Positions 7,277-54,125 of a stretch of 64,000 nt of DNA are shown here, one piece after another. Every line of letters starts with the position of its first letter. Position 1 is the stretch's first letter. A program made the position numbers and the translations under genes. Under the pieces are notes generated by a model. The model was not told where the DNA came from and ran no database searches. It saw only the letters and a program-made list of their open reading frames with translations. The stretch comes from an uncultured Moraxellaceae bacterium (GTDB lineage Bacteria; Pseudomonadota; Gammaproteobacteria; Pseudomonadales; Moraxellaceae), in assembly GCA_964373105.1 (NCBI GenBank), contig CAYJTU010000001.1:5217-69216 (forward strand), given 5' to 3'.

Positions 7277-7287
7277 GATTGCGTTCA

Positions 7288-7497: not shown

Positions 7498-7524
7498 TCC
7501 TTTTCTTCAATGCCGTGTCGTAGG

Positions 7525-8121: not shown

Positions 8122-8183
8122 ATGTGACCTCGATTCAAAGTAGGCTGCGTCGCCTAATATTTATTGCAGAAGTCGCGACGTTG

Positions 8184-8729: not shown

Positions 8730-8841
8730 GGCTAAGTTCCTTATTTGAGATGGGTAATGGGTATACTTTGACGTTATCACATCGTCGATCACGCAGGGAT
8801 AGCGATTGCGTTGAAGCAATGTTACCGAGCATGACCGTGAA

Positions 8842-9387
8842 TCAACCGTTTGTTTTACGATAGGTTTCAAAGCGAAAGTTGATCCCGCTTTTTTCATCTT
8901 TCAAGATACTGCGATCAAATACCGGATTAGGATCAATCGCCCATGTGCTTGGAATTTCAGGATAGTGAGCTGCACCTTGAACATCCAGATCGACATGGGT
9001 GATTTCTAAACGATCTGCAATGGGTAGAGTGAGATTAAATAATTCACCACCCCCAATCACATAAATCGCCGATTGACCACGTGTAATGGCATCCTGAGCC
9101 GCACCCGTAAGTAAAACATCAAGTGACTGCCTGACTTGAACGCCATCATGCTGCCAGTCGCTTTGGCGGGTTAGCACCCAGTGGCTGCGATTGGGCAATA
9201 AGCGTCCGAGGGAGTCAAAAGTTTTGCGCCCCATGACGATCACACCGCCTTGGGTAATCTGTTTAAAATGCTGTAAATCGGCTGGAATATGCCAAGGCAG
9301 TTGATTGTCTATACCAATGCAGTGTTTGTTATCCATCGCGACGACATGGACGATTTCAATCGAAGTTCCCGCGCTATTCAAACTCAT
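8842..9387 (-). CDS. folA: Dihydrofolate reductase
   Basis: [33 protein letters not shown]; follows thyA. Confidence 0.95.
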
Positions 9388-9451
9388 GAATCATCCTTAC
9401 TTTCTACGCTAGAGGGTTTAACAGAATAAACCCCATTCTTCAAAATATGAT

Positions 9452-10294
9452 TTAGACCGCAACGGCTGCTTTAATCGCGGGATGATGTTCATAATTGACC
9501 AGCTCTAAATCGGCATATTCAAATGCAAACAGATCTTTGATCTCAGGATTAATCTTTAAGGTCGGCAGAGCCAGCGGCTCGCGACTGAGTTGCAGTTGGG
9601 TTTGTTCAAAGTGATTGCTGTATAGATGGCTGTCGCCGCCTGTCCAGACAAACTCACCGACTTCTAGATCAGTGACTTGAGCAATTAAATGGGTGAGCAA
9701 GGCATAGCTTGCGATATTAAAGGGTACGCCTAAGAAGATATCGGCGCTGCGCTGATAAAGCTGGCAGGAGAGTTTGCCATTGGCGACATAGAACTGAAAC
9801 ATGGTATGGCAAGGCGGCAAGGCGACTTGCCCAGCTTCAGCTGGATTCCAGCCTGAGATGATCAGACGACGTGAGTCCGGGTTGGTTTTGATCTCATTGA
9901 TCAGCCAAGAAATCTGATCGAAGCCATCTTTGGCATAGCTGCCGTCGGCGTGTTTGGTTGCGCCGAAGTTACGCCATTGATGGCCGTAAACGGGCCCTAA
10001 ATCATCTTCAGCCCGTCCAAAACGTGCACATTGTTCCGCGGTTGCCCATTCGTTCCAAATGGAGACGCCATTGTCCTTGAGGTACTGGACATTGGTATCG
10101 CCTTTCAAGAACCACAGCAGTTCCACCGCGACCGATTTAAAGTGCACCCGCTTGGTGGTCAGGATTGGAAAGCCTTTTTGCAAGTCAAATCGCATTTGAT
10201 AGCCAAAAACAGAGCGCGTACCAGTGCCGGTACGGTCAGTTTTATCGACACCATGATCAAGCACATGGCGCATCAGATCGAGATAATTTTTCAT
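9452..10294 (-). CDS. thyA: Thymidylate synthase
   Basis: [30 protein letters not shown]. Confidence 0.97.
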
Positions 10295-33704: not shown

Positions 33705-36572
33705 CTAGTTAACAGAATCCTGCGGCGGATAGAGGCTTAATCCGACTTGCTCAAAAGGATAGGCTAAAACCGCGTCAATGGCATCCATCATGGCAGAAAA
33801 ATTTGTTAAAAGTTCGGCCTGTAGCTCTGTTTCTGACTCAAAATTGATGAGTTTGCCATTTTTTTGGGCTGCCGTTAGCGCGCGCTCCATGACACCCGTC
33901 GTTTTGCGTAGAGTCGGTGTCCCCGTATAGCGACTACCGCCATGCAGACGATGGACCTCGGACATCAGTGATTCGAAATTGTGACTTTCCCAACTGGAGA
34001 TCAATTCAATTTTATCCGTCGGCAGAGCTTCGATCAGCATCCGTAATAAATCACGTGCCAGATCAACTTTGCCTGCAGCCAGTTTCAGGCTGAGCTGCCA
34101 ATCCACGATAGGATAGGAGACGGGTTCGATGGCACTGTTATCAAAGTAGGCATTCGGACTGTTGGTGGCAAACTGGCCGGTCCAGCGCTCTAGGATGTCG
34201 ACCAACTGCGCTTGCTGAATGGGTTTGCTGAAGTAATCATCCATGCCTGCGGCAAGCAGACGCTCCCGTTCATCACTTAAGGCATGTGCGGTCAGTGCGA
34301 TAATCGGAGTATGCTGCTGCTCCTGATAGGTTTCGGCATATTCAGTTTCGAGCAGTCGAATGCGCTGAGTGGTTTCAAGTCCCGACATGCGCGGCATTTG
34401 AATATCCATAAAAATCAGGTCAAATGGCGCTTCGGGTGATTGAGGATGCAAGCGTGATTCGATGTATTCAATGGCTTCAAGCCCACTGCTGGCTTTGGTG
34501 GTTTGAATGCCCAAATCACCGAGTAATGCATCCAAGACCAACAGATTCGGCGCGTGATCATCCACTGCCAAGACATGCAGATTGCGACCTTCAAAGCGCG
34601 GCGTGGCAGTGAGTTCATGTTTGTTCTTAGGTTCAAGTACGCTCAGTAATCCGACGCGACTGACGGGCTGATAGAGGGCTTGCACTTGATATTCTGTAAC
34701 GATCACGGGATCGATGGCCATCTGATAGCCATAAATGACCAATGCTCCGCTATAACGGGTTCGAATCTCACGCAACAGTGCGGGCGTATCTTTGGCATCT
34801 GCATCGGTGATGACCCAACCACGGCCCTGGGTTTCTTCTTCAAAAGTCGTTAAGCGACCGAATAAGTCTGGCAGCGAGGTGGCTTGTTCTAACTCCACGG
34901 CCATATGACCTAAGTAAGCACGCAGCACATTGAGACTGGCACGATGGGCGATATGTGCCAGCACGCGGCGTCCGTTGAACTGCGGCCAATCCACTACGTT
35001 TTCTTGGGTGACGCCCAGCAATGCAGTGAACCAGAAGGTTGCACCTTGCTCGGCATTATCTTCAAAACCGACCTCACCGCCCATCAACTGCGCGAGCTGA
35101 CGGACGATGGCAAGCCCCAAACCCGTACCGCCATACTGACGATTGACGGAAGGATCACCTTGATGGAAGGATTGAAATAAATGATCTTTTTCCATACTGC
35201 CGAGGCCAATACCACTATCTTGCACAGAGAAGTGAATCAGATTTTGATGAGCGCGCTGCGGTTGCTGGGCGGGATCATCCAAGCGAACGCGAATAATCAC
35301 TTCGCCTTGCTGGGTGAATTTGATCGCATTGCTCACCAGGTTGGTCAAAATTTGCTTTAAGCGCAGTGCATCGCCATGCGCTTGACGCGGAACATCGTCA
35401 TAAAAATAAACGGCAATATTGAGATTTTTCTCACTGGCCAGCGGCGTCAACATGTCGATGACATCGAACACGGTCTCTTCTAAATTAAAGGGGGCTTTGT
35501 CCAGTACTAATTTGCCCGCTTCAATTTTTGAAAAATCAAGCACATCATTAATCAGTGCAAGTAAGTGGGCACTGGATTTACGAATGGTCTGTACATACAA
35601 GGTTTGCTCATCAGACAGTTCACCGCGCCGTGACAGGAGATTGATAAAACCATCGATGCTGTTGAGGGGGGTACGCAGTTCATGGCTGATATTGGCGAGA
35701 AAAACTGACTTGGTGGTACTGGCTTGCAGTGCTGAGTCACGGGCTTGGCGATAGGTGATGTTTTGCATCTCAATCGTATCAAGCGTCTGCCGCAGGTCAT
35801 CTTCGGTTTGGTCGCTATAGGCTTGTAGCTCGACGACGTTGCTATGCAAGCGTCTTAAGAAGTAACCAAAATCTTTTTGTAGCAAGCGCATTTCACCGTA
35901 GCTATTGCTTTCGATCGGTTGATTGAGCGAGGTAATCGAGAGGCGCTGGAGCAGCATGCGCAATTCATAAATCGGGCTGATCCAGCGGGTCGAATAAAAG
36001 CTTAAGCACAAGAGCAGCAATAGCAACGTTATCAAACCGATAATCGTCAACACGCCCCAGACGCGATAGCGCGCCAGCTCCAGCGGCTGATTATCCATAT
36101 CGATGACCAGCCAAATGGGGCTATCGGTGGCAAAGCCAACACGTAGACCATAATTGTTGCCCACACTGCTTGGCAATGGGCCAAACGTTTGGCGGTTGAT
36201 GGAAAACTTGGCCCATTCGGCATCCGCGTTAAAGCCCATACTTAAGCGTGGAATACCATGGATATCGATGAGTGCAGCGCGTTTGACGTTTTCTTCGCCA
36301 AGTATGTTTTGCAGGATATTACGGGCTTTGCTTGCGCCATCAGGCTGTTCGAGCAGTGGAATCAGGGTTTTGCTGGCCAATTGATAGCGGGCGAGGACGG
36401 CTTCAGCGCGGCTACGTTGTTCGGCTTTGGTCGCACGTGCGGTTTCGGAGATGACCAGAGATGCGCCAATCAAGGTCAGGATCGTAATCGGCACAAAAAT
36501 CAGCGCGACCAATTGCCCGTAAGCATTTTGAATGCTCAAGCGATGAAACCAACGTGTTTGGGCCGAGGCCAT
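33705..36572 (-). CDS. gacS: Hybrid sensor histidine kinase GacS/BarA
   Basis: Two TMs, H-box FLANISHELRTPL, HATPase, receiver FMDIQMP, Hpt VHRLHG; divergent from cysM. Confidence 0.9.
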   Translation of the reverse strand: MASAQTRWFHRLSIQNAYGQLVALIFVPITILTLIGASLVISETARATKAEQRSRAEAVLARYQLASKTLIPLLEQPDGASKARNILQNILGEENVKRAALIDIHGIPRLSMGFNADAEWAKFSINRQTFGPLPSSVGNNYGLRVGFATDSPIWLVIDMDNQPLELARYRVWGVLTIIGLITLLLLLLCLSFYSTRWISPIYELRMLLQRLSITSLNQPIESNSYGEMRLLQKDFGYFLRRLHSNVVELQAYSDQTEDDLRQTLDTIEMQNITYRQARDSALQASTTKSVFLANISHELRTPLNSIDGFINLLSRRGELSDEQTLYVQTIRKSSAHLLALINDVLDFSKIEAGKLVLDKAPFNLEETVFDVIDMLTPLASEKNLNIAVYFYDDVPRQAHGDALRLKQILTNLVSNAIKFTQQGEVIIRVRLDDPAQQPQRAHQNLIHFSVQDSGIGLGSMEKDHLFQSFHQGDPSVNRQYGGTGLGLAIVRQLAQLMGGEVGFEDNAEQGATFWFTALLGVTQENVVDWPQFNGRRVLAHIAHRASLNVLRAYLGHMAVELEQATSLPDLFGRLTTFEEETQGRGWVITDADAKDTPALLREIRTRYSGALVIYGYQMAIDPVIVTEYQVQALYQPVSRVGLLSVLEPKNKHELTATPRFEGRNLHVLAVDDHAPNLLVLDALLGDLGIQTTKASSGLEAIEYIESRLHPQSPEAPFDLIFMDIQMPRMSGLETTQRIRLLETEYAETYQEQQHTPIIALTAHALSDERERLLAAGMDDYFSKPIQQAQLVDILERWTGQFATNSPNAYFDNSAIEPVSYPIVDWQLSLKLAAGKVDLARDLLRMLIEALPTDKIELISSWESHNFESLMSEVHRLHGGSRYTGTPTLRKTTGVMERALTAAQKNGKLINFESETELQAELLTNFSAMMDAIDAVLAYPFEQVGLSLYPPQDSVN

Positions 36573-40027: not shown

Positions 40028-41275
40028 TTATCGTGCAAGATGCTCCATCAGTACAACTTGGAGTTCTCCGACCAAGAAGCCGAGTGTGGCGCCCACGGCA
40101 ATGAGTATCCATTCATCTTGCTCAAAAGCGGGATGCAGCAAGTTTTCAAACTCTTCCAAGGTCAATTCGGTCATTTTCGATGCCAAGGTGCGTTCTAGAT
40201 CCATGGCGTCTTCAGCATACTGTTCGATATTTTTCAGGGTGTCGGGCAGACGTTTGATGATCTCTTCGGCGACCAATAGCTTCATTTCCTGATAGCGACC
40301 ACTGCCGACCGCAAAGACCACAAAAGGCTTGGCAATGCCGGATTGGTCATCGACCACCAACTGCACATGTTTTTGAACCATACCAAACAAGCGATCTGAT
40401 AGCGGACCACGCAGAATCGAGTCGATAATGTTGCGCGGTGTGACCACTTCTTTGGCAATCAGGCGTCCATACTACGCAGAGACTTCATGACGACGTTTCA
40501 ATAACAATCCTTGCCATTGGATGAGACCCCGTAAGTACTTGGTGGGATGCTTGGGGTTAAACACCATTTTCAGTGCCAGCCAATCTGTAAACCAACCGGT
40601 GAACAAGCCGAAGATCGGCATCACCCACGGTGAGTGGGTCAGTGCCCAAGTGACGGCTTGTACGATACCGATCATAAAACCAAACAATGCACCTGAGTTA
40701 CGGATAAAACGAAACTCGCCGCTGCCTGCTTCTAAAAAAATACGATTCAAAAGTTGCTTATCGCGGAGCAGGCTAGTGACCACCATATCTTTGAGATCAA
40801 ACACCGAGCCAATATTGGTTTTTACATCGTTCATGATGTGATTGACTATATTTGGCGCATCATCCTGAATGCGGCGAATGATTCGATTTTTGACCGACTG
40901 CGGTGCGATCTCCCACAGGCCTGGAGAATAGTGTGCAGCGACTTCGCGGGTAATGTCTTCGATCGCAGCCAGCAACGGTTTTTCGATTTCCTTGGCAATC
41001 CGCTCTGGATCGAGCTTATTAAAAATATCTTCAGGACTGATCAGTTTGGTCGTCATAGTATCGCAGGCGATTCCTGCCATGATGGCTGCCTTGCGCGGTA
41101 CGATGCCCTGCCACCCTAAGTAAGGTTTAATGCCAATGAACTCAAGCGGCCTGAACATCATATTGATGGCGACGATTTTGGTGCCGTAGCCAATAATTGC
41201 AGCAACAAAAGGCATGGAGGCATACAGCCACCAGTTGCGCTGTACATCAATGACAATTTCTGACCATGTTTGCAT
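40028..41275 (-). pseudogene. DUF445-family membrane protein interrupted by one in-frame TAG at 40472-40474
   Basis: Reading continues in frame as ...GAA GTC TCT GCG TAG TAT GGA CGC CTG ATT GCC AAA GAA GTG...; the two track ORFs join into a 415-codon frame with a duplicated M.F.P...WQG motif. Confidence 0.8.
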
Positions 41276-41384: not shown

Positions 41385-42092
41385 TTAAGCGCTATCAGAT
41401 CGACAAGCGTTCCAAAGGCGCTCGCCGAAGTCCGATATGCGTAGTGTATGCCGAATAATCCGACTGCGCAGCCCATTTTTTTTGAGTTGTTCAAGCTCTT
41501 TACGCACAATCGCTTCTGTTTCTAGTATCTCATATTTCATGGTTTGACTATGCTCAGTCGGCTCAATCGTGACCAGCCCCAGCCTGCGTAAATGCTGGAC
41601 ATAAATATGCGTGAGGTCAGAGCATTGAACGCCAGCATTCTTGCCGACACTGGAAACGCACTCCACCGCATAATGCGTCCATGCAAAGCGAGACCCTGCC
41701 TCCACATGAATGAGTGGGTAGCCAGCGCCCTCTGAAAGGGCGGATAAAATGCGTGCTTGATCTGGAACGAGTGATTCGAGGATGGTCAGGAAGTAGTTGG
41801 TCTCTGCTTGTTCTCGGGTTTGGATCTGTGAGTGTTCTAGAAGCTCACATAAACGCGCATTAAGTCGCTGGTTGGCCGAGTGACTCAGCGTGACCGGATT
41901 GACCTGTGCGGGTTCCATCAGGTCCAGTCGTTGTTTGATCTCATGTAGGAGGCGCTGCTCTGCATATTTAAGCTGATTCAGCGCGAAGTCACGTCCAGGG
42001 AGATTGCGCAAGATTCGAGAGAGACGCGGCTCTGAAGTCGGTTCAACTTCAAATAGACTGACTTCATAAACTCTTGATACTTCTTTATTCAT
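41385..42092 (-). CDS. Putative Abi-alpha (DUF4393)-like protein
   Basis: ILESLVPDQARIL and C-terminal LRISDFGERLWNAC recall this family; recognition only. Confidence 0.5.
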   Translation of the reverse strand: MNKEVSRVYEVSLFEVEPTSEPRLSRILRNLPGRDFALNQLKYAEQRLLHEIKQRLDLMEPAQVNPVTLSHSANQRLNARLCELLEHSQIQTREQAETNYFLTILESLVPDQARILSALSEGAGYPLIHVEAGSRFAWTHYAVECVSSVGKNAGVQCSDLTHIYVQHLRRLGLVTIEPTEHSQTMKYEILETEAIVRKELEQLKKNGLRSRIIRHTLRISDFGERLWNACRSDSA

Positions 42093-43003: not shown

Positions 43004-43030
43004 ATAGACATTACTCGTGGTGATCAAATG

Positions 43031-43064
43031 ATAAGGTCTTACTCGTGTAAGACCTTATTTTTTT
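43031..43064 (+). terminator. Intrinsic terminator
   Basis: ataaggtcttac-tcgt-gtaagaccttat followed by a T-run. Confidence 0.85.
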
Positions 43065-43157
43065 GACCTTACGATTTCTCGTCACATAAAAAAGCAATCA
43101 ACGATTAAATCAGACCCGCAAAAAAAACTTCCCCATAACAATAATATTTTCTTTTTT

Positions 43158-43184
43158 TGAATCCAAAAACGTCTTTGGCTCGTA
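43158..43184 (+). promoter_or_regulatory. Putative ECF sigma promoter of the DUF4331 operon
   Basis: TGAATCC-N16-CGTA preceded by a T-run; same motif and spacing found upstream of the fasciclin gene. Confidence 0.65.
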
Positions 43185-43283
43185 ATTACTCAGGTGATGG
43201 GAGTACTTATCACATCTGCGGCATGGGGATCGTTTTTTGGATTATAGAACAATGCACGTTCAATCATTTTAAGGAAATACAAT

Positions 43284-44768
43284 ATGAAACGTCAGCTTAC
43301 CACGCTTGCGATCGCAGTCATCATGGCGACGGGCAGCTTGAGTGCCAGTGCTTCAAGCCATCGCGAAGCGCCTTCGATTACCAAAAGTCCTAAGGTCGAT
43401 GGGACAGATTTTTATATGTTCAAAAGTTATGAGTCAGGTCGTGCAGGCTATGTCACGCTGATTGCCAACTATTTGCCGTTACAAGATGGCTACGGGGGAC
43501 CCAATTATTTTTCTCTGGATCCTAATGCGCTCTATGAGATTCATATTGATAACAATGGAGATGCCAAAGAAGACGTCACCTTTCAGTTCCGGTTTCAGCA
43601 AACTTTAAAAGACCTTCAAGTGCCCGTGAATGGGCAAATGGTATCTGTGCCGCTATCGAATATCGGGGCAATTACCAATGATGCCAGTTCAGCGCAAAAT
43701 ACCTCTGAAACCTATAGCGTGACCATGGTCAAAGGTGATCGACGCACAGGTGCAAAGACAACACTTGGCACTGGTTTTAAAAAACCTTTTGATAATGTCG
43801 GTAATAAATCCATTGCAAACTATGCTGCTTATGCCAATAGCTTTATTCAACCGATTAACTTCCCAGGCTGTGGGGCCGGCAAGGTATTCGTTGGTCAACG
43901 CAAAGACTCTTTTGCCGTCAACTTGGGTGAGACCTTTGACTTGGTTAATATCAAAGCGCCGGCAACCGAGTTTGATCCAAAAGCCGAAAACAAAGGCTTG
44001 AATACCCTAGAGGATAAAAACGTCACCACGCTAGCTCTTGAGGTGCCCATCGCCTGTTTAACTGCGGGTAGTGAGCCTGTGATCGGGGGCTGGACGACTG
44101 CCAGTTTACGTCAAGGTCGGTTGCTGAACCCAGTACCCGGCAGTGATATAAGCTCAGCGAGCAAGGAAGGCGGCGCATGGACTCAAGTGTCACGTTTAGG
44201 GATGCCACTGGTCAATGAAGTGGTGATTGGACTGAAAGATAAAGATAAGTTTAATGCCAGTAAACCCGCTAATGATGCTCAGTTTGCAACCTATGTCACC
44301 AATCCCACCCTGCCTGCATTGCTCGAGATTCTGTTCAAGAGTGCTGGCGTCAAAGCACCGACCAATTTTCCGCGCACTGACTTAGTCGCAGCGTTTCTGA
44401 CCGGTGTACCCACCTTGAATAAACCTGCCAATGTCGTCGCATCCGAAGAACTGCGCTTAAACACGACTCTGCCCGCGACACCAAAAGCGAGCCAAGAGCG
44501 TCTTGGCGTGATTGGCGGTGACGTTGCTGGATTCCCAAATGGTCGTCGTCCAGGTGATGATGTGGTAGACATTGCCTTACGTGTGGTGATGGGCAAGCTG
44601 TGTACGATCGATGGTGTCAATGCTGCAGTCGGTTGTAAACCAAGTGATGCGCCTGTCGGTGGCCTGCATTTCACTGATGGTGCATGGCAAAGTCCAACGC
44701 AGTTTGCTGAGACGTTCCCGTACTTGAATGCACCGATTGCAGGCTCTCCAAACCCTGCGAACAAATAA
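43284..44768 (+). CDS. DUF4331-domain secreted protein
   Basis: Signal peptide then SSHREAP, D.TDFYMF, QVSRLGMPLVNE, GFPNGRRPGDDVVD. Confidence 0.88.
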   Translation: MKRQLTTLAIAVIMATGSLSASASSHREAPSITKSPKVDGTDFYMFKSYESGRAGYVTLIANYLPLQDGYGGPNYFSLDPNALYEIHIDNNGDAKEDVTFQFRFQQTLKDLQVPVNGQMVSVPLSNIGAITNDASSAQNTSETYSVTMVKGDRRTGAKTTLGTGFKKPFDNVGNKSIANYAAYANSFIQPINFPGCGAGKVFVGQRKDSFAVNLGETFDLVNIKAPATEFDPKAENKGLNTLEDKNVTTLALEVPIACLTAGSEPVIGGWTTASLRQGRLLNPVPGSDISSASKEGGAWTQVSRLGMPLVNEVVIGLKDKDKFNASKPANDAQFATYVTNPTLPALLEILFKSAGVKAPTNFPRTDLVAAFLTGVPTLNKPANVVASEELRLNTTLPATPKASQERLGVIGGDVAGFPNGRRPGDDVVDIALRVVMGKLCTIDGVNAAVGCKPSDAPVGGLHFTDGAWQSPTQFAETFPYLNAPIAGSPNPANK

Positions 44769-44799
44769 GTGCAATCCCATCTCATGAAGGAGAACTATC

Positions 44800-45057
44800 A
44801 TGCGCTTTAAGTTGATTATGCCACTGGGTTTGTTGCTCTCGACGACGGTTTTTTTGGCCAGTTGTAGTCGAAGTGATTCGGACAGTACATCTTATAACTT
44901 TATCCCAACCCCATCGACGGATGATCCCTTTATCACTCTCGTTCGGCAACAGACCGATACGCCGAGTGCGCTGTCGGATGAATCTGAGCCGATAGACATT
45001 GTCAGACTGGTTGCAACATCCCCAGAAGATAATGAGCCTCAATTGGTTAAGTTCTAA
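44800..45057 (+). CDS. Small lipoprotein associated with DUF4331
   Basis: Lipobox FLASC; SD ggag upstream; SDESEPIDI segment. Confidence 0.75.
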   Translation: MRFKLIMPLGLLLSTTVFLASCSRSDSDSTSYNFIPTPSTDDPFITLVRQQTDTPSALSDESEPIDIVRLVATSPEDNEPQLVKF

Positions 45058-45072
45058 ATCATCTCGGTGTCG

Positions 45073-45103
45073 ACGCGATTGAGTACGCGGTATTCAATCG
45101 CGT
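45073..45103 (+). terminator. Strong intra-operon hairpin without a U-tract
   Basis: acgcgattgagtac-gcg-gtattcaatcgcgt. Confidence 0.55.
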
Positions 45104-45163
45104 TATGCATATCTTCCATAGTGACTTAAAGACTGAATTTAAAGCATCGTCAAAGGGCCATAT

Positions 45164-46324
45164 ATGAGGCAAATATCAAGTTGGGTCATGCTGCTCACGA
45201 TCAGTTTGATGGCCATCGCATCAACAGATGTGAGAGCTGCACCTTTTCGTCCGACCCAAGATCATGTGGTGATCGATACATTGCCTGTGGGTAGCCCCAC
45301 GTTTCAATCTCGGACACGCATGATGTCAACGACAAAGCAGCCTTTTAGTACAGTTGAACCTCAAATTCGTGCGCTATTACGCCAGTCTTATACACAGGGC
45401 GATCCGCGCGCGCTGGGCCAAGCGGAGTCACTTTTAGAGCCTTATCGCAATGATATTTCTCCAACTGTACGCATCCTACGCGCAAACATCTTTCAGGCCA
45501 GTCACCGTTTCGATGAAGCCCGACTTGAGTTACAGGCGATTTTAAAAAATATACCCAATCAGCCTGATGCATTATTGATGTTGTCTTCCATCGATCTGGT
45601 TCAGGGGCATTTTGATGTAGCGCGCAGTAGTTGTGATCAATTGCGCGATATGGGGTTATTGGTATTACGCTTAGCCTGCTATGCACAAGTGGATGCAATG
45701 ACGGGTAAACTACAATATAGCCGTGATACGTTGTTGAAATTATTACAGATGAATAGTGGACTCACGGTAGAGCAACAACGTTGGATGAATCTGATTTTGG
45801 CAGATATCGCGCTGCGTTTAGACGATGCAGTGCTTGCGAAATCTGTCTTTGAGCAATTGGATATCGAGACGGCACCGTCACTGATGGCCCGTGCAGATTG
45901 GTTACTTGCACATCATGAGTGGGCAAAAACACAACAATTGCTTGCCAACCATACTGATAACGACAGTTTACTGCTCCGTTTGGTCATGAGCGAAGTTCGA
46001 TTGAAAGATCCACTAGCAATATCGCATTTCAGACTGCTGGGTTCGCGAATTCTAGTTTGGAAGGAGCGCGGTGAAACCGCGCACCAACGAGAAGAAGCCA
46101 TGTATGCCTTGATGCTAAGCCCTCCAGAAAAATCACTGACGCTTGCCCGTGCGAATTGGCAGAAACAGCGTGAAACTGCAGATGTGGCTGTTTATGCCAA
46201 TGCTGCTATATATGCTCATAGCCGGTCTGATTTGCGCGTTATTCAAGATTGGATCAAAGAAACGGGGTTTGAATACCCAAGGCTGAGCCAAGTCATTACT
46301 CAATCTTTACAGGCAGGACAGTAA
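45164..46324 (+). CDS. Secreted TPR-repeat protein
   Basis: Signal peptide and helical repeats such as RANIFQASHRFDEARLEL and PDALLMLSSIDLVQGHFDVA. Confidence 0.8.
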   Translation: MRQISSWVMLLTISLMAIASTDVRAAPFRPTQDHVVIDTLPVGSPTFQSRTRMMSTTKQPFSTVEPQIRALLRQSYTQGDPRALGQAESLLEPYRNDISPTVRILRANIFQASHRFDEARLELQAILKNIPNQPDALLMLSSIDLVQGHFDVARSSCDQLRDMGLLVLRLACYAQVDAMTGKLQYSRDTLLKLLQMNSGLTVEQQRWMNLILADIALRLDDAVLAKSVFEQLDIETAPSLMARADWLLAHHEWAKTQQLLANHTDNDSLLLRLVMSEVRLKDPLAISHFRLLGSRILVWKERGETAHQREEAMYALMLSPPEKSLTLARANWQKQRETADVAVYANAAIYAHSRSDLRVIQDWIKETGFEYPRLSQVITQSLQAGQ

Positions 46325-46326
46325 TC

Positions 46327-47538
46327 ATGGCGCATGTCTCATTAGATCGTTATGGGCGCCTGATTCCGCTCATTCTTGTTTTTTTTGTCATGGTATGGTC
46401 CCACGTCGCTTACGCGCATCAATCCAGCACGGCGTATCTAACGATCACCAGCACGTCAAAAAGTCCAAAAGTGACGGCTGAATATCGATTGGCGATTCGT
46501 GATTTGGCACTGCTTGTTCCTCTTCAAATGGATCAAAATCGATCGATCACGTGGGGGGCGCTTAAAGCTCAGAGTCCCGCGATCAATCAGCTCTTGGTCC
46601 AAGATATGCAGTGGCAAACTGGCCAAAACCCATGTCGAATGACAAGTCAGCGTGAACCACTGGCACTGGATCATATGGCCGGTATGCCATATGTGGTGAT
46701 TTATCTGGGGGTGGATTGCGGGTCAAAACCGCCGACTACCCTGAATTACCAGATTCTTAAGCATATCGATAGCGGTCACCGTTTGATTATCAGTATCCAT
46801 GATCCACAGCAGGCACAACACAGCCGCAGTTGGTTGGTTGCTCCGAGTACAATTTCACTGTTTGCTCCCGATGGCAGTCTGCAAGAGACTTTTCAGACCT
46901 ATGTCCGCGAAGGCATTCATCATATTTTGACCGGATACGATCATTTGCTTTTTTTACTCTGTTTGCTGTTGCCCGCGGTCTATGTACATAGCAAAGCAAC
47001 ACGAGGGCTGGATAATCGTCAAGCGCATCATCAGGATAGTCATTGGATTCCGATTCAAGCGCCGATGAGTGCGGTGTGGCATACCTTATCTATCGCCACT
47101 GCCTTCACATTGGCACATTCAATCACCCTCAGCTTGGCGGCACTCAATGTGATTTCATTACCGTCGCGACTTGTTGAGTCGGTGATTGCTTTTTCGATTG
47201 CGCTGGCGGCGTTGAATAATTTACGGCCGATGTTTGGTACACGCTATATTCGTTTGGCCTTTTTCTTTGGCTTGATCCACGGTTTTGGCTTTGCGAGTGC
47301 ACTCTCTGACTTGCCGATTGGGACGGGTAGCCGTGTCTTGGCATTGTTCTCATTTAATCTGGGCATAGAGCTGGGGCAAATGACTTGTATTTTAATATTC
47401 TTGCCGATTGCTCTGGCTTTAAGACACAGTCTGTTCTATCGTCAAATTATGTTCAAAGGGGGGTCTGTGGTTGCCTGTATCTTAGCGCTGCTGTGGATGA
47501 CACAGCGTATATTTGACTTAAATTGGATACCCGGATGA
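46327..47538 (+). CDS. HupE/UreJ-family protein with N-terminal periplasmic domain
   Basis: AH at the mature N-terminus; EGIHHILTGYDHLLFL, TAFTLAHSITL, GLIHGFGFA, FNLGIELGQ. Confidence 0.88.
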   Translation: MAHVSLDRYGRLIPLILVFFVMVWSHVAYAHQSSTAYLTITSTSKSPKVTAEYRLAIRDLALLVPLQMDQNRSITWGALKAQSPAINQLLVQDMQWQTGQNPCRMTSQREPLALDHMAGMPYVVIYLGVDCGSKPPTTLNYQILKHIDSGHRLIISIHDPQQAQHSRSWLVAPSTISLFAPDGSLQETFQTYVREGIHHILTGYDHLLFLLCLLLPAVYVHSKATRGLDNRQAHHQDSHWIPIQAPMSAVWHTLSIATAFTLAHSITLSLAALNVISLPSRLVESVIAFSIALAALNNLRPMFGTRYIRLAFFFGLIHGFGFASALSDLPIGTGSRVLALFSFNLGIELGQMTCILIFLPIALALRHSLFYRQIMFKGGSVVACILALLWMTQRIFDLNWIPG

Positions 47539-48086
47539 TGTTCGCACCACTTGCAGATGAACGAACTTTATTGTTGCAAATAGGGCAAGGCAACCGCCAG
47601 GCTTTTCGTCAGCTCTACGATCAAACCTCACCACACTTGTTTGCGGTGGCGTTACGGCTTTTACGCAAACGAGATATCGCCGAAGAGGTCTTACAAGAAG
47701 TCTTTTTGACCCTCTGGCATGCAGCGGATCAGTACGACATTGAGCGTGGTTCGGTACGGACTTGGCTATCCACGATCACGCGTAATCGCTGTATAGACCG
47801 AATTCGCCGCACCCCTGTGGAGACACTGCCACTGCTCGATGAGGATGCTTTGGCATCAGAGAAAGATGATCCGCTCACGCATGTGCTAGACCAAGATCAT
47901 CATGCCCTGCTATCGGTCTGTTTAGGGGAGCTGGATGAGCAACAACGCCACTGTGTCTCACTGGCTTTCTTTGATGGCATGACCCATCAGGAGGTGGCGA
48001 CCCATTTGACAGTGCCCCTTGGTTCCGCGAAAACATGGATTCGCCGCGGTTTAGATTTTTTAAAGAAATGCATGGGAGCCGTATAA
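47535..48086 (+). CDS. ECF sigma-70 factor (SigK-like)
   Basis: AEEVLQEVF, WLSTITRNRCIDRIR, GMTHQEVA...LGSAKTWIRRG; ATGA overlap with the HupE stop. Confidence 0.93.
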   Translation: MMFAPLADERTLLLQIGQGNRQAFRQLYDQTSPHLFAVALRLLRKRDIAEEVLQEVFLTLWHAADQYDIERGSVRTWLSTITRNRCIDRIRRTPVETLPLLDEDALASEKDDPLTHVLDQDHHALLSVCLGELDEQQRHCVSLAFFDGMTHQEVATHLTVPLGSAKTWIRRGLDFLKKCMGAV

Positions 48087-48088
48087 TT

Positions 48089-48850
48089 ATGACTCTACAA
48101 GATGATGTTTTGGATGGCACTGAGCCGCCTTTTAACCTGATCGCCGCTCAATATGTACTGGGGACCTTATCCGCATCAGCGCGCTTACGCTTTCAAGCCC
48201 GCCTTCAACAGGAGCCTGAGCTACGGGCTTTAACCCACGCATGGGAGCGGCGTTTGAACCCCTTGACCAATCTCTTGGAGCCGCAAGACGTGCCCCCTGA
48301 AGTTTGGCAGAAAATTGAGGCGCGTCTTGATGGGGTTACATCTGTACAACGACCTACCGTTCAACCGCCTATTTTGGGATCTGCGGCGAATGACAGCTAT
48401 TGGAAGCCTTGGGCATGGGCCAGTTCGGCGATTGCAGCAGGTCTTGTGCTCTTTATCTTCGTACGACCCGATGGGATCACGCCGCAGCCACCTGTGATGA
48501 GCGCTCAAGTACAGCCAGTCAGTCGTGATGTGGCAGTGCTGAGCACCGATAAAAGTGCACCTGCATGGATTGTCCGCCAGCAAGGGCAAACGCTGGTCCT
48601 GAGTGCCTTGGATACCGCAGTTGTTCCTTCTGATCGTGATTTGGAGCTGTGGAGTATTCAGGGGAATGCCGCTCCGCATTCTCTCGGTGTGTTGCATCTC
48701 AAAAATGGCCAAGCGACACTGCCACAAGTCGCAGCAGATTTGATCACGAAAGACAGCACGCTGGCGATCAGTTTAGAGCCCAAGAATGGTTCACCGACGG
48801 GTCAACCGACTGGCACGGTGTTGTATACAGGGAAAGTGGTGGCGGCATAA
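48089..48850 (+). CDS. RskA-type anti-sigma factor
   Basis: AAQYVLGTL N-terminus, one TM, C-terminal DLELWSI and LAISLEPKNGSPTGQPTGTV. Confidence 0.9.
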   Translation: MTLQDDVLDGTEPPFNLIAAQYVLGTLSASARLRFQARLQQEPELRALTHAWERRLNPLTNLLEPQDVPPEVWQKIEARLDGVTSVQRPTVQPPILGSAANDSYWKPWAWASSAIAAGLVLFIFVRPDGITPQPPVMSAQVQPVSRDVAVLSTDKSAPAWIVRQQGQTLVLSALDTAVVPSDRDLELWSIQGNAAPHSLGVLHLKNGQATLPQVAADLITKDSTLAISLEPKNGSPTGQPTGTVLYTGKVVAA

Positions 48851-48914
48851 TCGGCTTGTTGATCGGGAAAGTCTTTTCAAGATTGAAGCAGTCATATCGT
48901 AATGGTCGAGTTAT

Positions 48915-48949
48915 AAAAAGGGAGAGCATCAATAATGCTCTCCCTTTTT
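48915..48949. terminator. Bidirectional terminator between rskA-like and DUF4394 genes
   Basis: aaaaagggagagcat-caata-atgctctcccttttt. Confidence 0.88.
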
Positions 48950-48975
48950 CAATGTTTGGCCTGCTGAATCAGCGG

Positions 48976-50733
48976 TTATTTGACGACGCGTATAGCCAAG
49001 TCTTTTAACACTATGGGTGTGGTCCCGCCGATCGGTGTCGTGCCGACTTGTGTGGCCGCACCGGTTTGTAAGTTGATCCGATATAGATTCGAACGACCTG
49101 TGACGGTCAGTGCCGCATAGGTAACTGTATTGCCAATATTGATGCCGATTTCTGCCGGTGTCGCTGCATCGATACCCGCGCCTCCAATGATATCCATCCC
49201 ACTATTTTGACTATCAGCGATGATGCCTAAACTGCCAATAACCACTTGGGTGCCGCTATTGGGTGGGTTTTGGTATTTCAATTGATTACTGGTTGGGTCA
49301 ATCACATATAGGCGTGTGGTGAGAGCACCATCAAAATTGTTGGTGTATGCGGCAGAACCACTGTTTCCTGCAGGGGTGATTGCGCCATCACTGATGACGT
49401 TATAGCCTGAGACATCAGCAGGGAAGGTGAGGCGGAAGTTTTCATGTGCATTGTTGAGGATACGCAGCGCATTGGGGACTGGATTGAAGTCCACGCCAAA
49501 ATTAGTCGCAGCGGGGTTAAACAGTAAGTTTTGCCCTGCATTTGCACTGATCAATGTTGCCACTGCGCTAGAACGATTGACCTCATAGATAGCGCCGGCA
49601 TGCGTTAGCGTATGACGGGTGACGATCGTGAGTGCGCCCGTTTTTGGGCGAATGTCCATACCTACAATGCTTTCATTTGCACCGATTCCCGTGATGGTTG
49701 TTGGGCTACTGATTAAGGTTGTAATACCCGCTGCATTGGGTCTAAAACTAACCAGTTGATTGCTGGTGGTGAGTCCATAGGCGATTGCGGGTGCCGGTGT
49801 GGGGATCGCGATGTCCACTACCAATTGACCTTTGGGTGCTTGAATTGTTCCGACACAACTCGCGGATCCTGTCGCAAGATTTATTGAATAAAGGCCAGTC
49901 GATGTGGTTTTGGCGACATTGAGTGCCGCTAATCCAACTCCAGTGACGCCGTCAATATCAAAACCTGCACGATCGTTAAAAGTGACCCCCAATGCGCCTA
50001 CTGAGGTGATTGAACCTGTATTTGGATTAGTCGACCCATCAATGCCGCCTTGTAGCACGAGGCTTCCTGACATCGAGTCGAGCAGATATAACGTTGTGAC
50101 GGGCGCCCCTGTGAAGCTATTGGTATAGGCTGCAGAAACGAGATGACCCACTGGCGTGAGGGCAGAGTCCACATTGACGGCATAAGATGTCAAGTCTGAG
50201 CTAAACACCAAACGATAATTTTCTTCAGCGTCACTGACGATGCGAAGCGCCCCGGGAACAGGGTTGAAGTCGATTCCAAAGCGTGTCCCTTTTAAATCTA
50301 ATCCAGTTGCGCCTGTGCGGGTCAATAGCGTTGCTTGACCTGTGGTGAGGTCTATCGTATAGAGTTGACCTACCGATCCTAATTTAGCTAAGGCGATGAG
50401 TTTGCTATCTGCTGGCCGATAGTCGATCGCCACCACACTTTCTCCAGCTTGTAAGCCTGAAATGGTGATGGGTACGCTGCCTGTTGCGGTATTCGGCGTA
50501 AACTGCACCAGCTTGCCACTTTCCGTGAGTGCTGTGACCGTTGCAGGTAAACCGACGGGTAAGGGGCTGACGGCGGTACACGCCGAATCAGGGGTAAGAT
50601 TAGGGTTTGTGTCAATAGGTCCAACGACTGCATCCATATCGTCATCGCTTCCACATGCTGCGAGTGACAAGATTAAAGCAGTGATTAGACCCAGCCTAAA
50701 ATGGTTTTGAGAGATCAAATTTATCGTTCTCAT
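48976..50733 (-). CDS. Lipoprotein with two tandem DUF4394-like domains
   Basis: Lipobox LAAC; duplicated ID/MDxRP...GxDFNPVPxALR...AAYTNxF motifs. Confidence 0.8.
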   Translation of the reverse strand: MRTINLISQNHFRLGLITALILSLAACGSDDDMDAVVGPIDTNPNLTPDSACTAVSPLPVGLPATVTALTESGKLVQFTPNTATGSVPITISGLQAGESVVAIDYRPADSKLIALAKLGSVGQLYTIDLTTGQATLLTRTGATGLDLKGTRFGIDFNPVPGALRIVSDAEENYRLVFSSDLTSYAVNVDSALTPVGHLVSAAYTNSFTGAPVTTLYLLDSMSGSLVLQGGIDGSTNPNTGSITSVGALGVTFNDRAGFDIDGVTGVGLAALNVAKTTSTGLYSINLATGSASCVGTIQAPKGQLVVDIAIPTPAPAIAYGLTTSNQLVSFRPNAAGITTLISSPTTITGIGANESIVGMDIRPKTGALTIVTRHTLTHAGAIYEVNRSSAVATLISANAGQNLLFNPAATNFGVDFNPVPNALRILNNAHENFRLTFPADVSGYNVISDGAITPAGNSGSAAYTNNFDGALTTRLYVIDPTSNQLKYQNPPNSGTQVVIGSLGIIADSQNSGMDIIGGAGIDAATPAEIGINIGNTVTYAALTVTGRSNLYRINLQTGAATQVGTTPIGGTTPIVLKDLAIRVVK

Positions 50734-50930
50734 GAGAATTATTCCTTTTAATGTTTTAAATTTTTAATCAAGTGGGATACACAAAAACATAGAACATACT
50801 TTGATCGTCAGCTGCGCTTGTAACTCACGATGAATGGCTAGCAATGATCTTTCCTTACATTCGATAGCGCCAAAAAACGTGTGACGCATTCGAACTTTTT
50901 TCTCATGAATCGCCTGTATTCATGTTGACC

Positions 50931-53078
50931 CTAAAAATTCACTCTCAAACTGACGCGCACGGCACGAGATTCAGCAGGGTGCAGATGTTTATCCAAGAAA
51001 CCTTCACGACTTGTCGCATTGGCATTACATGCGGATGTTGTGGATTCGCTGCGTAGGCAGGAGGCATAGAGATATTCAATATCATTGACCTGACGATTGA
51101 GTAGATTCAGGATTTCCAGCTTGCCTAGAAAGTGCTTAGAGAATTGATAACCCACTTGGGCATTGACCAATGTCGACGCTGCAGAGCGGATACTATTGTC
51201 TTCATTCAGTGGCCGTGGTCCAAAGTAGCGTAGCCGTAGACCCGCTGACCACGGACTATTTGGGGTATAGGCGATGCCCATAGATGCGGTCGTGGCGATT
51301 GCATCAGGGATATGGTTGCCTGCTGGATCGGCATCAGTAAATTTGGCTTGAGAAAAGGCGGTATCCACATCAACCTGCCATGATTTGGACGGCTGATAGT
51401 AATTGGTCCATTCAATCCCACGGCGACGGCTGGGGCGACTGGCTTCAGTCGTACCTGCATCGCCGACAAAGACCAGCTCTGAATCAGAATTCAACTGCCA
51501 TAGCGCCACGGTACTGTGCAGGTGCGGCAGTATTTCGGTACGGAATCCCAATTCTCCACCCTTGGTTCGGACAAGGGGCGAGACGGAATCGACTGGAGAG
51601 AGGTAGCCTGCATCACGCGGATCAGGGTTGATCCGTAGTGTGGTTCCCCGTGCATCGTTACTGTGAAATCCATAACCATAGTTGATGTAATATTCTGTTT
51701 TTTCAAAGGGACCAAAGATAAAGCCTATTTTAGGACTGGTTTTATGCGCATAGCGGTTGCCACTGTTCTGGGCAATATTGGCATCGACATCAAAATAATA
51801 AAAATCACTGCGTAAACCGAGAATACTGCGGAAGTAGGGTGTCCAATGGATCGTATTTTCGGCATAGAGTGCGGCGCTTGTTTCATTGACTTGGTCATCG
51901 CTGACCGTTGCATAGCGGACACGGTTCTCGGTCAGAAATAACCCATCACTGCTGATGGCATCATGGCGAGCGCTGATGCCGAGTTTATTCTGCATCGGGT
52001 AGCTGAACACATTGCCAAAGAAGCTCTGCTCATAACGCCCGCCAAAAATATTACGTTTATCGAGTTGCTCAAATTGGTCACCTCGGATCGGATTGTTCAG
52101 AAAATAGGTAAAATCAGAGAATAAATTGAGCTTGTAGTGCAGGGCAAACAGATCCAGTTTACGCTGTCCCGTGAGTGTAGTATCCGCCCAATTAAAGGTC
52201 AGTGCGGTACGTTTTGTTTCCCCACCATCGCTGGGGTTCAATGAGCCGTATCGCCCGATGACGCCATCGTCAATGGCACGTTGAGCGACCTGATCGGTAG
52301 ATCCCCAGTCGGATTGATAGTGGCTAAGTGCCAGCGACCAGCCGTTATTTAAGCTGCCACGGCTATAGCGTAGTTGAACATTTTGTTTTTTTGAGTTTTC
52401 GGCGACATCCCATGGTCCATCTGAATGTGAGGCATCTACAGCGCCCAGTAATTGACCGCCCAGATACTCAGTGGATCCTGCGGCTAGAAACCGCGCATAG
52501 CCGAAAGATCCAGCCGTAAGTTCGACGAAATTCTCTTTAAGTTGACGCATTTGCTCAATCCGCACACTGCCTGCGGATGCAAAGTCACCATCGGCAGCAT
52601 TGTACGGTCCTTTACGATATTGGATGAAATTGACCAGTTCTGGAATGATAAAGTTGAGATCGCTGTAGCCTTGTCCATGGGCATGACTTGGCATATTCAC
52701 CGGTGCGCCATCTACAAAACTGGCGAGATCAGTGCCATGATCGAGATTAAAGCCACGCAGGAAATATTGATTGGCTTTGCCATCCCCACTATGTTGGGTC
52801 ACGATTAAGCCAGGCACGGTTTCAAGAATTTCTGCGGGTCTTAGCAAGGGTCGATTTTTGAGTTGTGCTTGGGTAATGGTGCCTTGAGAAGCGGTATCTG
52901 CAATTCCAAGCAGATTGGGGGTCCGCGTTGCGGTCACTGTGACGCCCGGCAGTGAGGCTTCTTCGATTTGATTGTTATCCAGCGGCAGACCTCCTGCATG
53001 CACGTGAAAGGCACAGCAAAAAGGAAGGAAGGCTTGCCAGCTTCGTAGTCTGGATTGGATAATGAGCCGCGACATCAT
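50931..53078 (-). CDS. TonB-dependent receptor
   Basis: VTVTATR TonB box; plug VPGLIVTQHSGDGKANQYFLRGFNLDHGTD; C-terminal Phe. Confidence 0.92.
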   Translation of the reverse strand: MMSRLIIQSRLRSWQAFLPFCCAFHVHAGGLPLDNNQIEEASLPGVTVTATRTPNLLGIADTASQGTITQAQLKNRPLLRPAEILETVPGLIVTQHSGDGKANQYFLRGFNLDHGTDLASFVDGAPVNMPSHAHGQGYSDLNFIIPELVNFIQYRKGPYNAADGDFASAGSVRIEQMRQLKENFVELTAGSFGYARFLAAGSTEYLGGQLLGAVDASHSDGPWDVAENSKKQNVQLRYSRGSLNNGWSLALSHYQSDWGSTDQVAQRAIDDGVIGRYGSLNPSDGGETKRTALTFNWADTTLTGQRKLDLFALHYKLNLFSDFTYFLNNPIRGDQFEQLDKRNIFGGRYEQSFFGNVFSYPMQNKLGISARHDAISSDGLFLTENRVRYATVSDDQVNETSAALYAENTIHWTPYFRSILGLRSDFYYFDVDANIAQNSGNRYAHKTSPKIGFIFGPFEKTEYYINYGYGFHSNDARGTTLRINPDPRDAGYLSPVDSVSPLVRTKGGELGFRTEILPHLHSTVALWQLNSDSELVFVGDAGTTEASRPSRRRGIEWTNYYQPSKSWQVDVDTAFSQAKFTDADPAGNHIPDAIATTASMGIAYTPNSPWSAGLRLRYFGPRPLNEDNSIRSAASTLVNAQVGYQFSKHFLGKLEILNLLNRQVNDIEYLYASCLRSESTTSACNANATSREGFLDKHLHPAESRAVRVSLRVNF

Positions 53079-53290
53079 AAAATTTTTCCTAATTTATAGT
53101 TTTACATGACATTACTAGAAAAATAATTTATAAAACAATGCTTTATTTTTATTATCTGGATTAGTGCGCGTCTTTACCATACGAAGAATAACGTAGTGTA
53201 TGCAACACATTGATCTGCATAACTGCACTTACCTGCAAAATCAGGCTATCTACAATAGAAGCCTGATGGGCTCATCATCTGCTCATAATG

Positions 53291-53854
53291 TTATTTGGGC
53301 ATCAATACTGTATCGATGACATCAATCACACCATTTGATTGATAGACGTCATACGTGGTGATGTTGGCATAGCCACCTTTTTCATCCCAAACGAGGATGT
53401 TGTGCTTGCCATTCATGCTGAAGGTTAAGGTGCCGCCGCTTGCGGTTTTAAGCGTTGCTTTACCCTGTTCTTTGGCAATCAGTTTAGACAGTGCCGCAAA
53501 GTCATATTTACCCGGAACCACATGGTAGGTCAGGATTTTGGTCAGGGTATCTTTGTTTTCTGGTTTGAGCAGCGTCTCTACAGTGCCTGCGGGGAGCTTG
53601 GCAAAGGCAGCATTGGTCGGTGCAAACACCGTGAAAGGTCCTTTGCTTTTGAGCGTGTCCACCAGACCAGCCGCTTTAACCGCCGCGACCAATGTGGTGT
53701 GGTCAGCCGAGTTGACTGCATTGTCCACGATGTCTTTGCTCGGGAGCATGCTTTGACCACCGACCAGCACAGTGCTTTCAGCCAAGGCAACATTTGCCAA
53801 AGTCATCGATGCAGTCAGGGCTAGGGCTAAAGATAATTTGTTCATGGGGTTCAT
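53291..53854 (-). CDS. Fasciclin (FAS1)-domain secreted protein
   Basis: TTLVAAVKAAGLVDTL, GPFTVFAPTNAAF, ILTYHVVPG, NGVIDVIDTVL. Confidence 0.95.
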   Translation of the reverse strand: MNPMNKLSLALALTASMTLANVALAESTVLVGGQSMLPSKDIVDNAVNSADHTTLVAAVKAAGLVDTLKSKGPFTVFAPTNAAFAKLPAGTVETLLKPENKDTLTKILTYHVVPGKYDFAALSKLIAKEQGKATLKTASGGTLTFSMNGKHNILVWDEKGGYANITTYDVYQSNGVIDVIDTVLMPK

Positions 53855-53920
53855 CCTTTCTCAAAATTTTGGGGGTGTTTAATCCAATCGGATATTGAAT
53901 CTTGGTGTTGCCTAGAGATA

Positions 53921-53947
53921 TACGCAGCGCGGATGCATTTAGATTCA
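53921..53947 (-). promoter_or_regulatory. Putative ECF sigma promoter of the fasciclin gene
   Basis: TGAATCT-N16-CGTA on the minus strand, preceded by a T-run. Confidence 0.65.
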
Positions 53948-54125
53948 AAAAAGAAGTAGGTTTTTTTAAAATAGTTTATAAAGTCGTCTTTTATTGTTTT
54001 AAGAGTTATTTTTTTGCTTTAAAGATTTATTTTTATTGATAAAAATAAATCCTCAAGCAGTAGCGTCACCACTTGAGGATTCTGTGTACTTTTCGTTATC
54101 TAGACAAACCCAAGCGAGATCAAGA

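Follow-up and report, generated by a model that had tools for sequence, protein, structure and literature searches.

The gene cluster described here encodes a DUF4331 protein, a HupE/UreJ-2 permease and a TonB-dependent receptor together with a SigK-like extracytoplasmic function (ECF) sigma factor and its RskA-type anti-sigma factor. It occupies positions 43158-53947 of a 64,000-nucleotide stretch of DNA from an uncultured Moraxellaceae bacterium (hereafter the window; positions 5,217 to 69,216 of contig CAYJTU010000001.1 in assembly GCA_964373105.1). The assembly comprises 3.59 Mb in 263 contigs, all of which were covered by the genome-wide scans, and the closest named relatives of the genome are Aquirhabdus-like metagenome-assembled genomes. 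The cluster consists of nine open reading frames (ORFs), each single-copy in the assembly. An earlier, sequence-only reading had described nine genes with their domains, two convergent arms and a bidirectional terminator; ORF prediction, Pfam searches and hairpin folding find all of these where that reading had placed them. The features, in order along the window, are the following.

43030-43059 (+): terminator of an unrelated upstream gene, a 13-bp stem followed by a T-run; left boundary of the unit
43156-43186 (+): P1, promoter-like site TTTGAATCC-N16-CGTAAT, about 95 nt 5' of the DUF4331 gene
43284-44768 (+): DUF4331 protein, 494 aa, Pfam E=3e-156, Sec signal peptide
44800-45057 (+): small lipoprotein of low complexity, 85 aa, lipobox LASC
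45164-46324 (+): exported protein resembling tetratricopeptide repeat (TPR) proteins, 386 aa, weak TPR matches in Pfam
46327-47538 (+): HupE/UreJ-2 permease, 403 aa, PF13795 E=5.5e-45
47535-48086 (+): SigK-like ECF sigma factor, Sigma70_r2 and r4; the ORF opens at TTG 47523
48089-48850 (+): RskA-type single-pass anti-sigma factor, RskA_C E=1.6e-19; the ORF opens at 48035
48915-48949 (both strands): bidirectional intrinsic terminator between the arms, identified by folding
48976-50733 (-): lipoprotein with two DUF4394 stretches, 585 aa, Pfam E=2.5e-96, lipobox
50931-53078 (-): TonB-dependent receptor, 715 aa, plug and TonB barrel
53235-53266 (-): weak hairpin followed by UUUUG, 3' of the fasciclin gene, a possible partial terminator before the receptor gene (z -1.75, not significant)
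53291-53854 (-): secreted single-domain fasciclin protein, 187 aa, Pfam E=6.5e-34
53921-53949 (-): P2, promoter-like site TTTGAATCT-N16-CGTATA, about 65 nt 5' of the fasciclin gene
54047-54082 (-): terminator of the neighbouring minus-strand gene, a 16-bp stem followed by a T-run; right boundary of the unit

Each arm begins directly past the terminator of an unrelated neighbouring gene. The terminator at which the arms meet has a perfect stem of 15-16 bp between an A-run and a T-run, with folding energies of -22.4 and -23.9 kcal/mol for the two strands (z -6.5 and -7.9). In the plus arm the first gaps are 31, 106 and 2 nt, the permease and sigma genes share an ATGA overlap, and 2 nt separate the sigma gene from rskA. 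Because it is so tightly packed, the plus arm reads as one operon with the regulators last. The sigma factor probably starts at ATG 47535, within the ATGA overlap with the permease stop codon, instead of at TTG 47523, and RskA probably at ATG 48089 instead of at the ORF opening at 48035. The translations were inspected visually for export signals. Signal peptides of the AxA type are present on the DUF4331 protein, the TPR protein, the permease and the fasciclin protein, and the TonB receptor also carries a signal peptide; the 85-aa protein and the DUF4394 protein have lipoboxes, and RskA has one hydrophobic span. The prediction of the sequence-only reading that all products other than the sigma factor are exported or membrane-bound agrees with these signals.

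The outer ends of the two arms carry the same motif, TTTGAATCY-N16-CGTA, of which the window holds two exact copies against 0.18 expected. A T-run and TGAATCY-N16-CGTA are identical before the DUF4331 and fasciclin genes, and a scan of the whole 3.6-Mb assembly gives no convincing intergenic copy besides P1 and P2. A third match with one mismatch, at 34760-34788 (+), probably arose by chance, because a 955-aa ORF on the other strand covers it. The comparison drew on 80 loci fetched by DUF4331 similarity and on a further 11 that came from 400 evenly sampled Pseudomonadota genomes. Within the 260 nt 5' of DUF4331 homologues, 61 instances of TG[A/C]ATCC-N16-CGTA(T) were found, in about 60 of the 80 related loci, which belong to Gamma- and Betaproteobacteria, Nitrospiraceae and others. 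The motif also stands before the linked TonB receptor gene in about 12 Oxalobacteraceae loci, and before the sigma gene where the latter heads its operon (L127 and L133). A complete genome of the same genus, G008, whose DUF4331 protein is 95% identical, retains P1 and P2 within DNA that shows only 76-81% identity around them. Before the fasciclin gene the motif is conserved in G008, in locus L009 and in the betaproteobacterium Andreprevotia lacus (L021), where the fasciclin gene, the DUF4331 gene and the TPR-HupE2 pair form three separate motif-bearing units next to a sigma-RskA pair in divergent orientation. Genome G431 also has a motif-bearing fasciclin gene, at a great distance from its DUF4331 locus, and the fasciclin genes of three other genomes are without the motif.

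From the linkage we infer that the local sigma factor reads the shared motif. By analogy, this fits the published SigK dependence of fasciclin promoters, which was established by experiment in mycobacteria and in Yersinia enterocolitica, where mpt83, sigK and rskA form a "minimal cassette" (PMC7509140).

A full-length DUF4331 match is present in only 12 of the 400 evenly sampled genomes, G000 included, and DUF4331 was found in none of 14 control genomes. The neighbours of the gene are recurrent to different degrees. The TPR protein is encoded near DUF4331 in 47 of 52 fully flanked loci and in 6 of the 11 evenly sampled ones; the corresponding counts are 42 and 9 for the HupE/UreJ-2 permease, 29 and 10 for the sigma factor, 23 and 10 for RskA, and 24 and 2 for orthologues of the receptor, which are 43-68% identical and belong to the same subfamily. 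A lipobox search placed a lipoprotein of 70-100 aa with twin EP motifs directly 3' of DUF4331 in 82 of 92 loci, a count that includes a few spurious ORFs. The conserved core consists of DUF4331, the small lipoprotein, the TPR protein and the HupE/UreJ-2 permease, and the SigK-like sigma factor, RskA and the receptor subfamily usually adjoin it. The sequence-only reading had treated all nine genes as a single sigma-centred unit and had named co-occurrence across genomes as one way to check this. The promoter conserved across classes and the sigma-RskA pair beside DUF4331 in 10 of the 11 evenly sampled loci uphold the unit, and the core, the sigma factor, RskA and the receptor do recur with DUF4331, but two of the proposed members fare worse. 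Fasciclin is linked to the system by the shared motif and by its recurrence, but only in a minority of genomes (1 of the 52 fully flanked loci and 0 of the 11).

The other is DUF4394, which is a passenger and not a member of the system. It adjoins DUF4331 in none of the 52 fully flanked and none of the 11 evenly sampled loci and is missing from L009 and from the otherwise identical locus of G008. Homologues in five other genomes of the family are unlinked to the cassette, and the two whose neighbours were scanned adjoin guaA. Because of this absence and lack of linkage the gene is regarded as an insertion, specific to the lineage, that separates the terminator from the receptor gene; upstream of it in the window no ECF motif was found. 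The cassette as a whole is an accessory module, present in 19 of 60 sampled Moraxellaceae genomes and patchy even within genera. The DUF4331 homologues of three Moraxellaceae genomes (G466, G011 and G470) contain one in-frame stop codon each (TAA or TGA) and may be decaying copies of this module.

The sigma factor matches Sigma70_r2 (E=4e-20) and r4_2 (E=9e-12) and nothing else in Pfam. Its best NCBIfam model is SigK, at 157 bits and below the cut-off of 226, and its best match in the PDB is Mycobacterium tuberculosis SigK (4NQW, E=4.9e-24). SigK has a redox-sensitive pair of cysteines (PMC7826278), and both are kept here, at residues 133 and 183 of the 187-aa ORF, aligned to cysteines in 4NQW. 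The anti-sigma factor matches RskA_C (PF10099) with E=1.6e-19 and the NCBIfam anti-sigma model NF052375 with 105.5 bits against a cut-off of 100; its gene lies directly downstream of the sigma gene. Since sigK and rskA close the DUF4331 operon and their translation is coupled, the autoregulation suggested by the sequence-only reading is plausible.

The pair resembles the SigK-RskA systems of the M. tuberculosis complex, with mpt70 and mpt83, and of the Y. enterocolitica cassette in several respects: the sigma factor, putatively of the ECF18/19 clade, has the C133/C183 pair, an RskA_C anti-sigma factor is encoded directly downstream, and the sigma gene lies inside a target operon (a presumed one here). 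The gene for a secreted fasciclin protein stands here behind a candidate sigma-type promoter. The systems differ in their targets. The main target here would be the DUF4331-lipoprotein-TPR-permease operon together with a TonB receptor; no description of any of these was found in the parts of the SigK literature that were searched. The fasciclin protein of the window is soluble and secreted and not a lipoprotein. To our knowledge, neither the inducing signal nor the purpose of the SigK-RskA-fasciclin circuit of MPT70 and MPT83 is known in mycobacteria. The "rskA" of Cupriavidus metallidurans was considered as a relative and set aside as a coincidence of names, being the anti-sigma factor of the FecI-type RpoK. 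SbrI/SbrR/MuiA of Pseudomonas was also considered as a possible relative, but the review text on it offers no information on domains.

The PF13795 membrane domain of the permease (residues 192-367), the helices of which have conserved His, Asp and Glu residues, lies behind an N-terminal extension of 190 residues. Cleavage of the signal peptide is predicted between AYA and HQSS, and the two residues flanking the site, A30 and H31, are invariant in 29 sequences. All homologues have an AxA cleavage site with His directly after it, so that this His would be the first residue of the mature permease. In the AlphaFold2 model (predicted local distance difference test score, pLDDT, 87) the N-terminal domain is a beta-sandwich, which Foldseek matches with probability 1.0 to zinc-bound ZrgA (8F1B), copper-bound RbAng-1a (9GCE) and zinc-bound PA4063 (7AMX). 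The match to 9GCE has E=6.5e-5 and a template modelling score (TM-score) of 0.56 on the target, and a search at the level of sequence gave no match of the permease to 9GCE. The best fold matches, with a TM-score of 0.6 on the target, are ZrgA of Vibrio cholerae and PA4063 of Pseudomonas aeruginosa, which differ from the permease domain in being free-standing periplasmic proteins and are 10-13% identical to it; their genes presumably belong to Zur-controlled operons of the ATP-binding cassette (ABC) type. The metal link proposed by the sequence-only reading from the HupE/UreJ family is thus supported by an N-terminal-His domain that matches Cu- and Zn-binding proteins by fold.

The same architecture was described in 2025 for the anglerase-HupE/UreJ-2 permeases, in which a tethered domain is reported to bind Cu2+ and Ni2+ through its N-terminal His and, as proposed, to pass the metal to the permease; RbAng-1a is reported there to bind Cu2+ at 74 nM and Ni2+ at 220 nM (PMC12537917). 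The permease of the window shares with these proteins (Ang-1 and Ang-2) the signal peptide, the mature N-terminal His, the beta-sandwich and the PF13795 domain. The genomic neighbours listed for them are mostly of unknown function, together with DUF4198, and DUF4331, a TPR protein, ECF control and a receptor do not appear in the passages searched (PMC12537917).

The DUF4331 protein matches its Pfam family (PF14224) over the full length of the profile (1-421 of 421) with 521 bits against a cut-off of 27. The family comprises 5231 clusters at 50% identity with E <= 0.001, and 878 with E <= 1e-30. A full-text literature search of 8 million articles for DUF4331, DUF4394 and their Pfam numbers retrieved no paper. 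The AlphaFold2 model of the protein has a pLDDT of 74.6 and a predicted TM-score (pTM) of 0.80; a fold search with it against the PDB returned antibody-fragment matches only, which at TM-scores below 0.13 are meaningless. Searches of the PDB with the sequences of DUF4331, the TPR protein, HupE2, RskA and DUF4394 gave nothing useful.

The most distinctive part of the protein is its amino terminus. The predicted mature end is NH2-Ser-Ser-His-Arg-Glu-Ala-Pro, and S24, S25, H26, R27, E28 and P30 of this S-S-H-R-E-A-P segment are invariant in 30 aligned DUF4331 sequences. The arrangement extends to the family at large: in 109 of 117 distant representatives X-X-H follows an AxA-type cleavage site, with the pattern [A/G] before the cut and S-S-H-x-[E/D]-A-P after it. 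Of these 109 sequences, 93 have Ala and 8 have Gly at position -1; a small or aliphatic residue stands at -3, and SS occupies +1 and +2 in 102. The residues at -1 and -3 fit signal peptidase I, and therefore the mature DUF4331 protein would begin with NH2-X-X-His. Such an end is the amino-terminal Cu(II)- and Ni(II)-binding (ATCUN) motif, the chemistry of which is well established. The predicted mature protein has the free N-terminus, the His at position 3 and a residue other than Pro at position 2 that the motif demands, and these features, with the flexible segment, are shared with the ATCUN sites of albumins, histatins and hepcidin. The difference is that the motif is not known to have been described for a bacterial periplasmic family of this kind, in which metal binding is a prediction. 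The S-S-H segment is invariant yet predicted to be disordered (pLDDT 27-37), and in the model this combination fits a metal-binding tip. In a sub-branch of the family (P0049, P0056, P0066, P0080 and others) the signal peptides are very short and the end has the variant form SSHSEAPGT.

The sequence-only reading had regarded DUF4331 as the substrate of a machine that assembles or metallates it, for which no specific support was found. Judged from its sequence, a protein with an NH2-Ser-Ser-His end reads better as the metal-capturing part of an uptake route that would also include the TonB receptor and the permease. In the receptor subfamily 150 of 715 positions are conserved in at least 92% of the members. 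Six His residues are invariant, namely H96, H114 and H134 in the plug, H472, and the pair in the C-terminal H698-x-H700-P. The small lipoprotein ends in twin acidic EP motifs, for example SDESEPIDIV...SPEDNEPQLVKF, and this acidic tail could be a docking site for the neighbouring TPR protein. The fasciclin protein matches Fdp of Rhodobacter (1W7D, E=7e-35) and MPT70 (1NYO, E=4.8e-15) in the PDB.

Taken together, the locus is read here, with a confidence somewhat better than even, as a self-amplifying regulon of the SigK-like sigma factor and RskA, the products of which would form a route for capture and import of a metal of the Cu/Ni class. A periplasmic cue would free the sigma factor from RskA in the membrane, and the sigma factor would then read the two TGAATCY-N16-CGTA promoters, P1 and P2. 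P1 would drive DUF4331, the lipoprotein, the TPR protein, the anglerase-HupE/UreJ-2 permease, sigK and rskA; the switch would amplify itself because the P1 operon includes sigK and rskA. P2 would drive the fasciclin gene and, probably by read-through past the weak hairpin, the TonB-dependent receptor gene. The receptor would move a Cu(II)/Ni(II)-class metal or metal complex across the outer membrane, and DUF4331, periplasmic or secreted, would capture the metal on its flexible NH2-Ser-Ser-His end, with the TPR protein and the lipoprotein serving as a putative scaffold. The N-terminal-His domain of the permease would take the ion and feed it across the inner membrane.

Several observations weigh against this reading. 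The receptor consists of a plug (residues 63-170) and a barrel only and has no N-terminal signalling (STN) extension; no ECF motif of its own was found upstream of it in the window, and the weak hairpin (z -1.75) separates its gene from the fasciclin gene. Metal uptake is usually controlled by repressors of the Fur, Zur or NikR type and not by RskA-type anti-sigma factors. Urease is encoded in only 5 of 10 genomes carrying DUF4331, so that the cassette shows no tie to this nickel enzyme, and the Acinetobacter DUF4331 loci have neither the permease nor the motif. The proteins that share the fold of the permease domain include binders of Zn and of Cu. The cleavage site of DUF4331 is a prediction by the -3/-1 rule. 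Invariant Asp, Asn and Arg residues are numerous in the protein, which might be an enzyme, or a structural protein stabilised by calcium, and not a carrier. A comparable classical arrangement is FecI/FecR/FecA, which likewise combines an ECF sigma factor with an anti-sigma factor in the membrane and a TonB-dependent metal receptor (a putative one here), but in the window the receptor is without the N-terminal signalling domain, the anti-sigma factor is of the RskA and not the FecR type, and the sigma factor probably belongs to another clade.

The main rival, which we consider unlikely, keeps the same regulon but assigns it to defence against metal stress, a role comparable to that of the ECF systems Cnr and CorE or that of copper-binding peptides. 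DUF4331 would then be a periplasmic Cu/Ni sponge or chaperone under excess metal, and HupE/UreJ-2 would redistribute or export the ion. Pairs of ECF and anti-sigma factors classically respond to envelope or metal stress, and ATCUN sites bind Cu(II) very tightly, as would suit sequestration. Moreover, two Acinetobacter loci (L012 and L013) have the DUF4331 cluster beside genes for MNIO (DUF692), DUF2063, DoxX and an ECF sigma factor, with an EGKCG-repeat precursor (orf102) in L012, a gene set which we take to make copper-binding peptides. This link is limited, however, to 2 of 6 Acinetobacter loci, and in the source genome the peptide genes lie on another contig. A dedicated TonB receptor accompanies the cassette, behind the same promoter in about 12 loci, and receptors import. 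Efflux pumps, multicopper oxidases and P-type ATPases are not recurrent among the neighbours. HupE/UreJ proteins and their anglerase fusions are described as uptake permeases (PMC12537917).

An improbable alternative is a response concerned with envelope remodelling or adhesion, in which the sigma factor would sense surface or redox stress and induce the surface proteins (fasciclin, DUF4331 and lipoproteins), and the receptor and the HupE-like protein would carry a substrate other than a metal. Fasciclin is an adhesion or surface module, with the Rhodobacter protein Fdp as its best PDB match, the redox-sensitive cysteine pair of SigK (PMC7826278) is retained, the nearest relatives of the receptor with a solved structure are only YncD and the pyrroloquinoline quinone (PQQ) transporter, which are not metal receptors, and DUF4331 has no recognisable fold. 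The fasciclin gene, however, occurs in only a few of the loci, and the permease domain has the fold of three experimentally established metal binders and keeps their N-terminal His ligand. The HupE/UreJ-2 helices retain the His, Asp and Glu that characterise metal permeases, and the invariant X-X-His at the N-terminus of DUF4331 has no obvious rationale other than a metal.

That the arms are not one regulon at all, the shared motif being read by different factors or not being a promoter and the convergence being coincidental, is very improbable: the receptor and DUF4394 genes are indeed without a motif and fasciclin adjoins DUF4331 in only a few genomes, but two exact copies of the motif stand against 0.18 expected, both are retained in G008 and L009 at about 20-25% DNA divergence, the same pairing recurs in a betaproteobacterium, and fasciclin promoters are SigK-dependent by experiment in Y. 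enterocolitica and mycobacteria (PMC7509140).

If the Ser-Ser-His end of DUF4331 is a Cu/Ni site, as the metal-acquisition reading holds, the family would gain its first testable function, and the cassette would represent an undescribed uptake route for a trace metal, made up of a TonB receptor, a periplasmic carrier and a permease with a tethered domain. The cassette is also tied to the SigK-RskA-fasciclin circuit of the tuberculosis antigens MPT70 and MPT83, which suggests metal availability as a candidate cue. A further extension, decidedly doubtful, is that this circuit was ancestrally part of Cu/Ni-class metal acquisition, that fasciclin acts in the metal pathway of DUF4331, and that DUF4331 is an ATCUN-tipped carrier of a new fold handing its ion to the N-terminal-His domain of the permease. 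Of these elements, two have been published already, the architecture of the permease and the link between SigK and fasciclin.

The Acinetobacter loci have an organization of their own. Four of them (L012, L014, L016 and L017) share, at about 9830-9990, a conserved leader with an inverted repeat GTCTTATA...TATAAGAC and a TCACAAAAAATTCAC box. In the same four loci the receptor gene follows the TPR gene and is itself followed by a gene for a 283-aa protein with no Pfam match. Directly upstream of the DUF4331 cluster, L012 encodes (6456-9818) a 102-aa precursor with (E/D)GKCG repeats, an MNIO/DUF692 enzyme, DUF2063, an ECF sigma factor and DoxX. In L013 the enzymes, the sigma factor and DoxX stand beside the DUF4331 cluster, and the search for the precursor gave no match. 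In the source genome, contig C145 carries the genes for MNIO, DUF2063 and DoxX, with no linkage to the cassette. In the window itself, the genes just upstream of the unit, for an abortive infection protein (Abi_alpha, 41385-42092, minus strand) and a DUF445 protein (40472-41275, minus strand), are unrelated to it.

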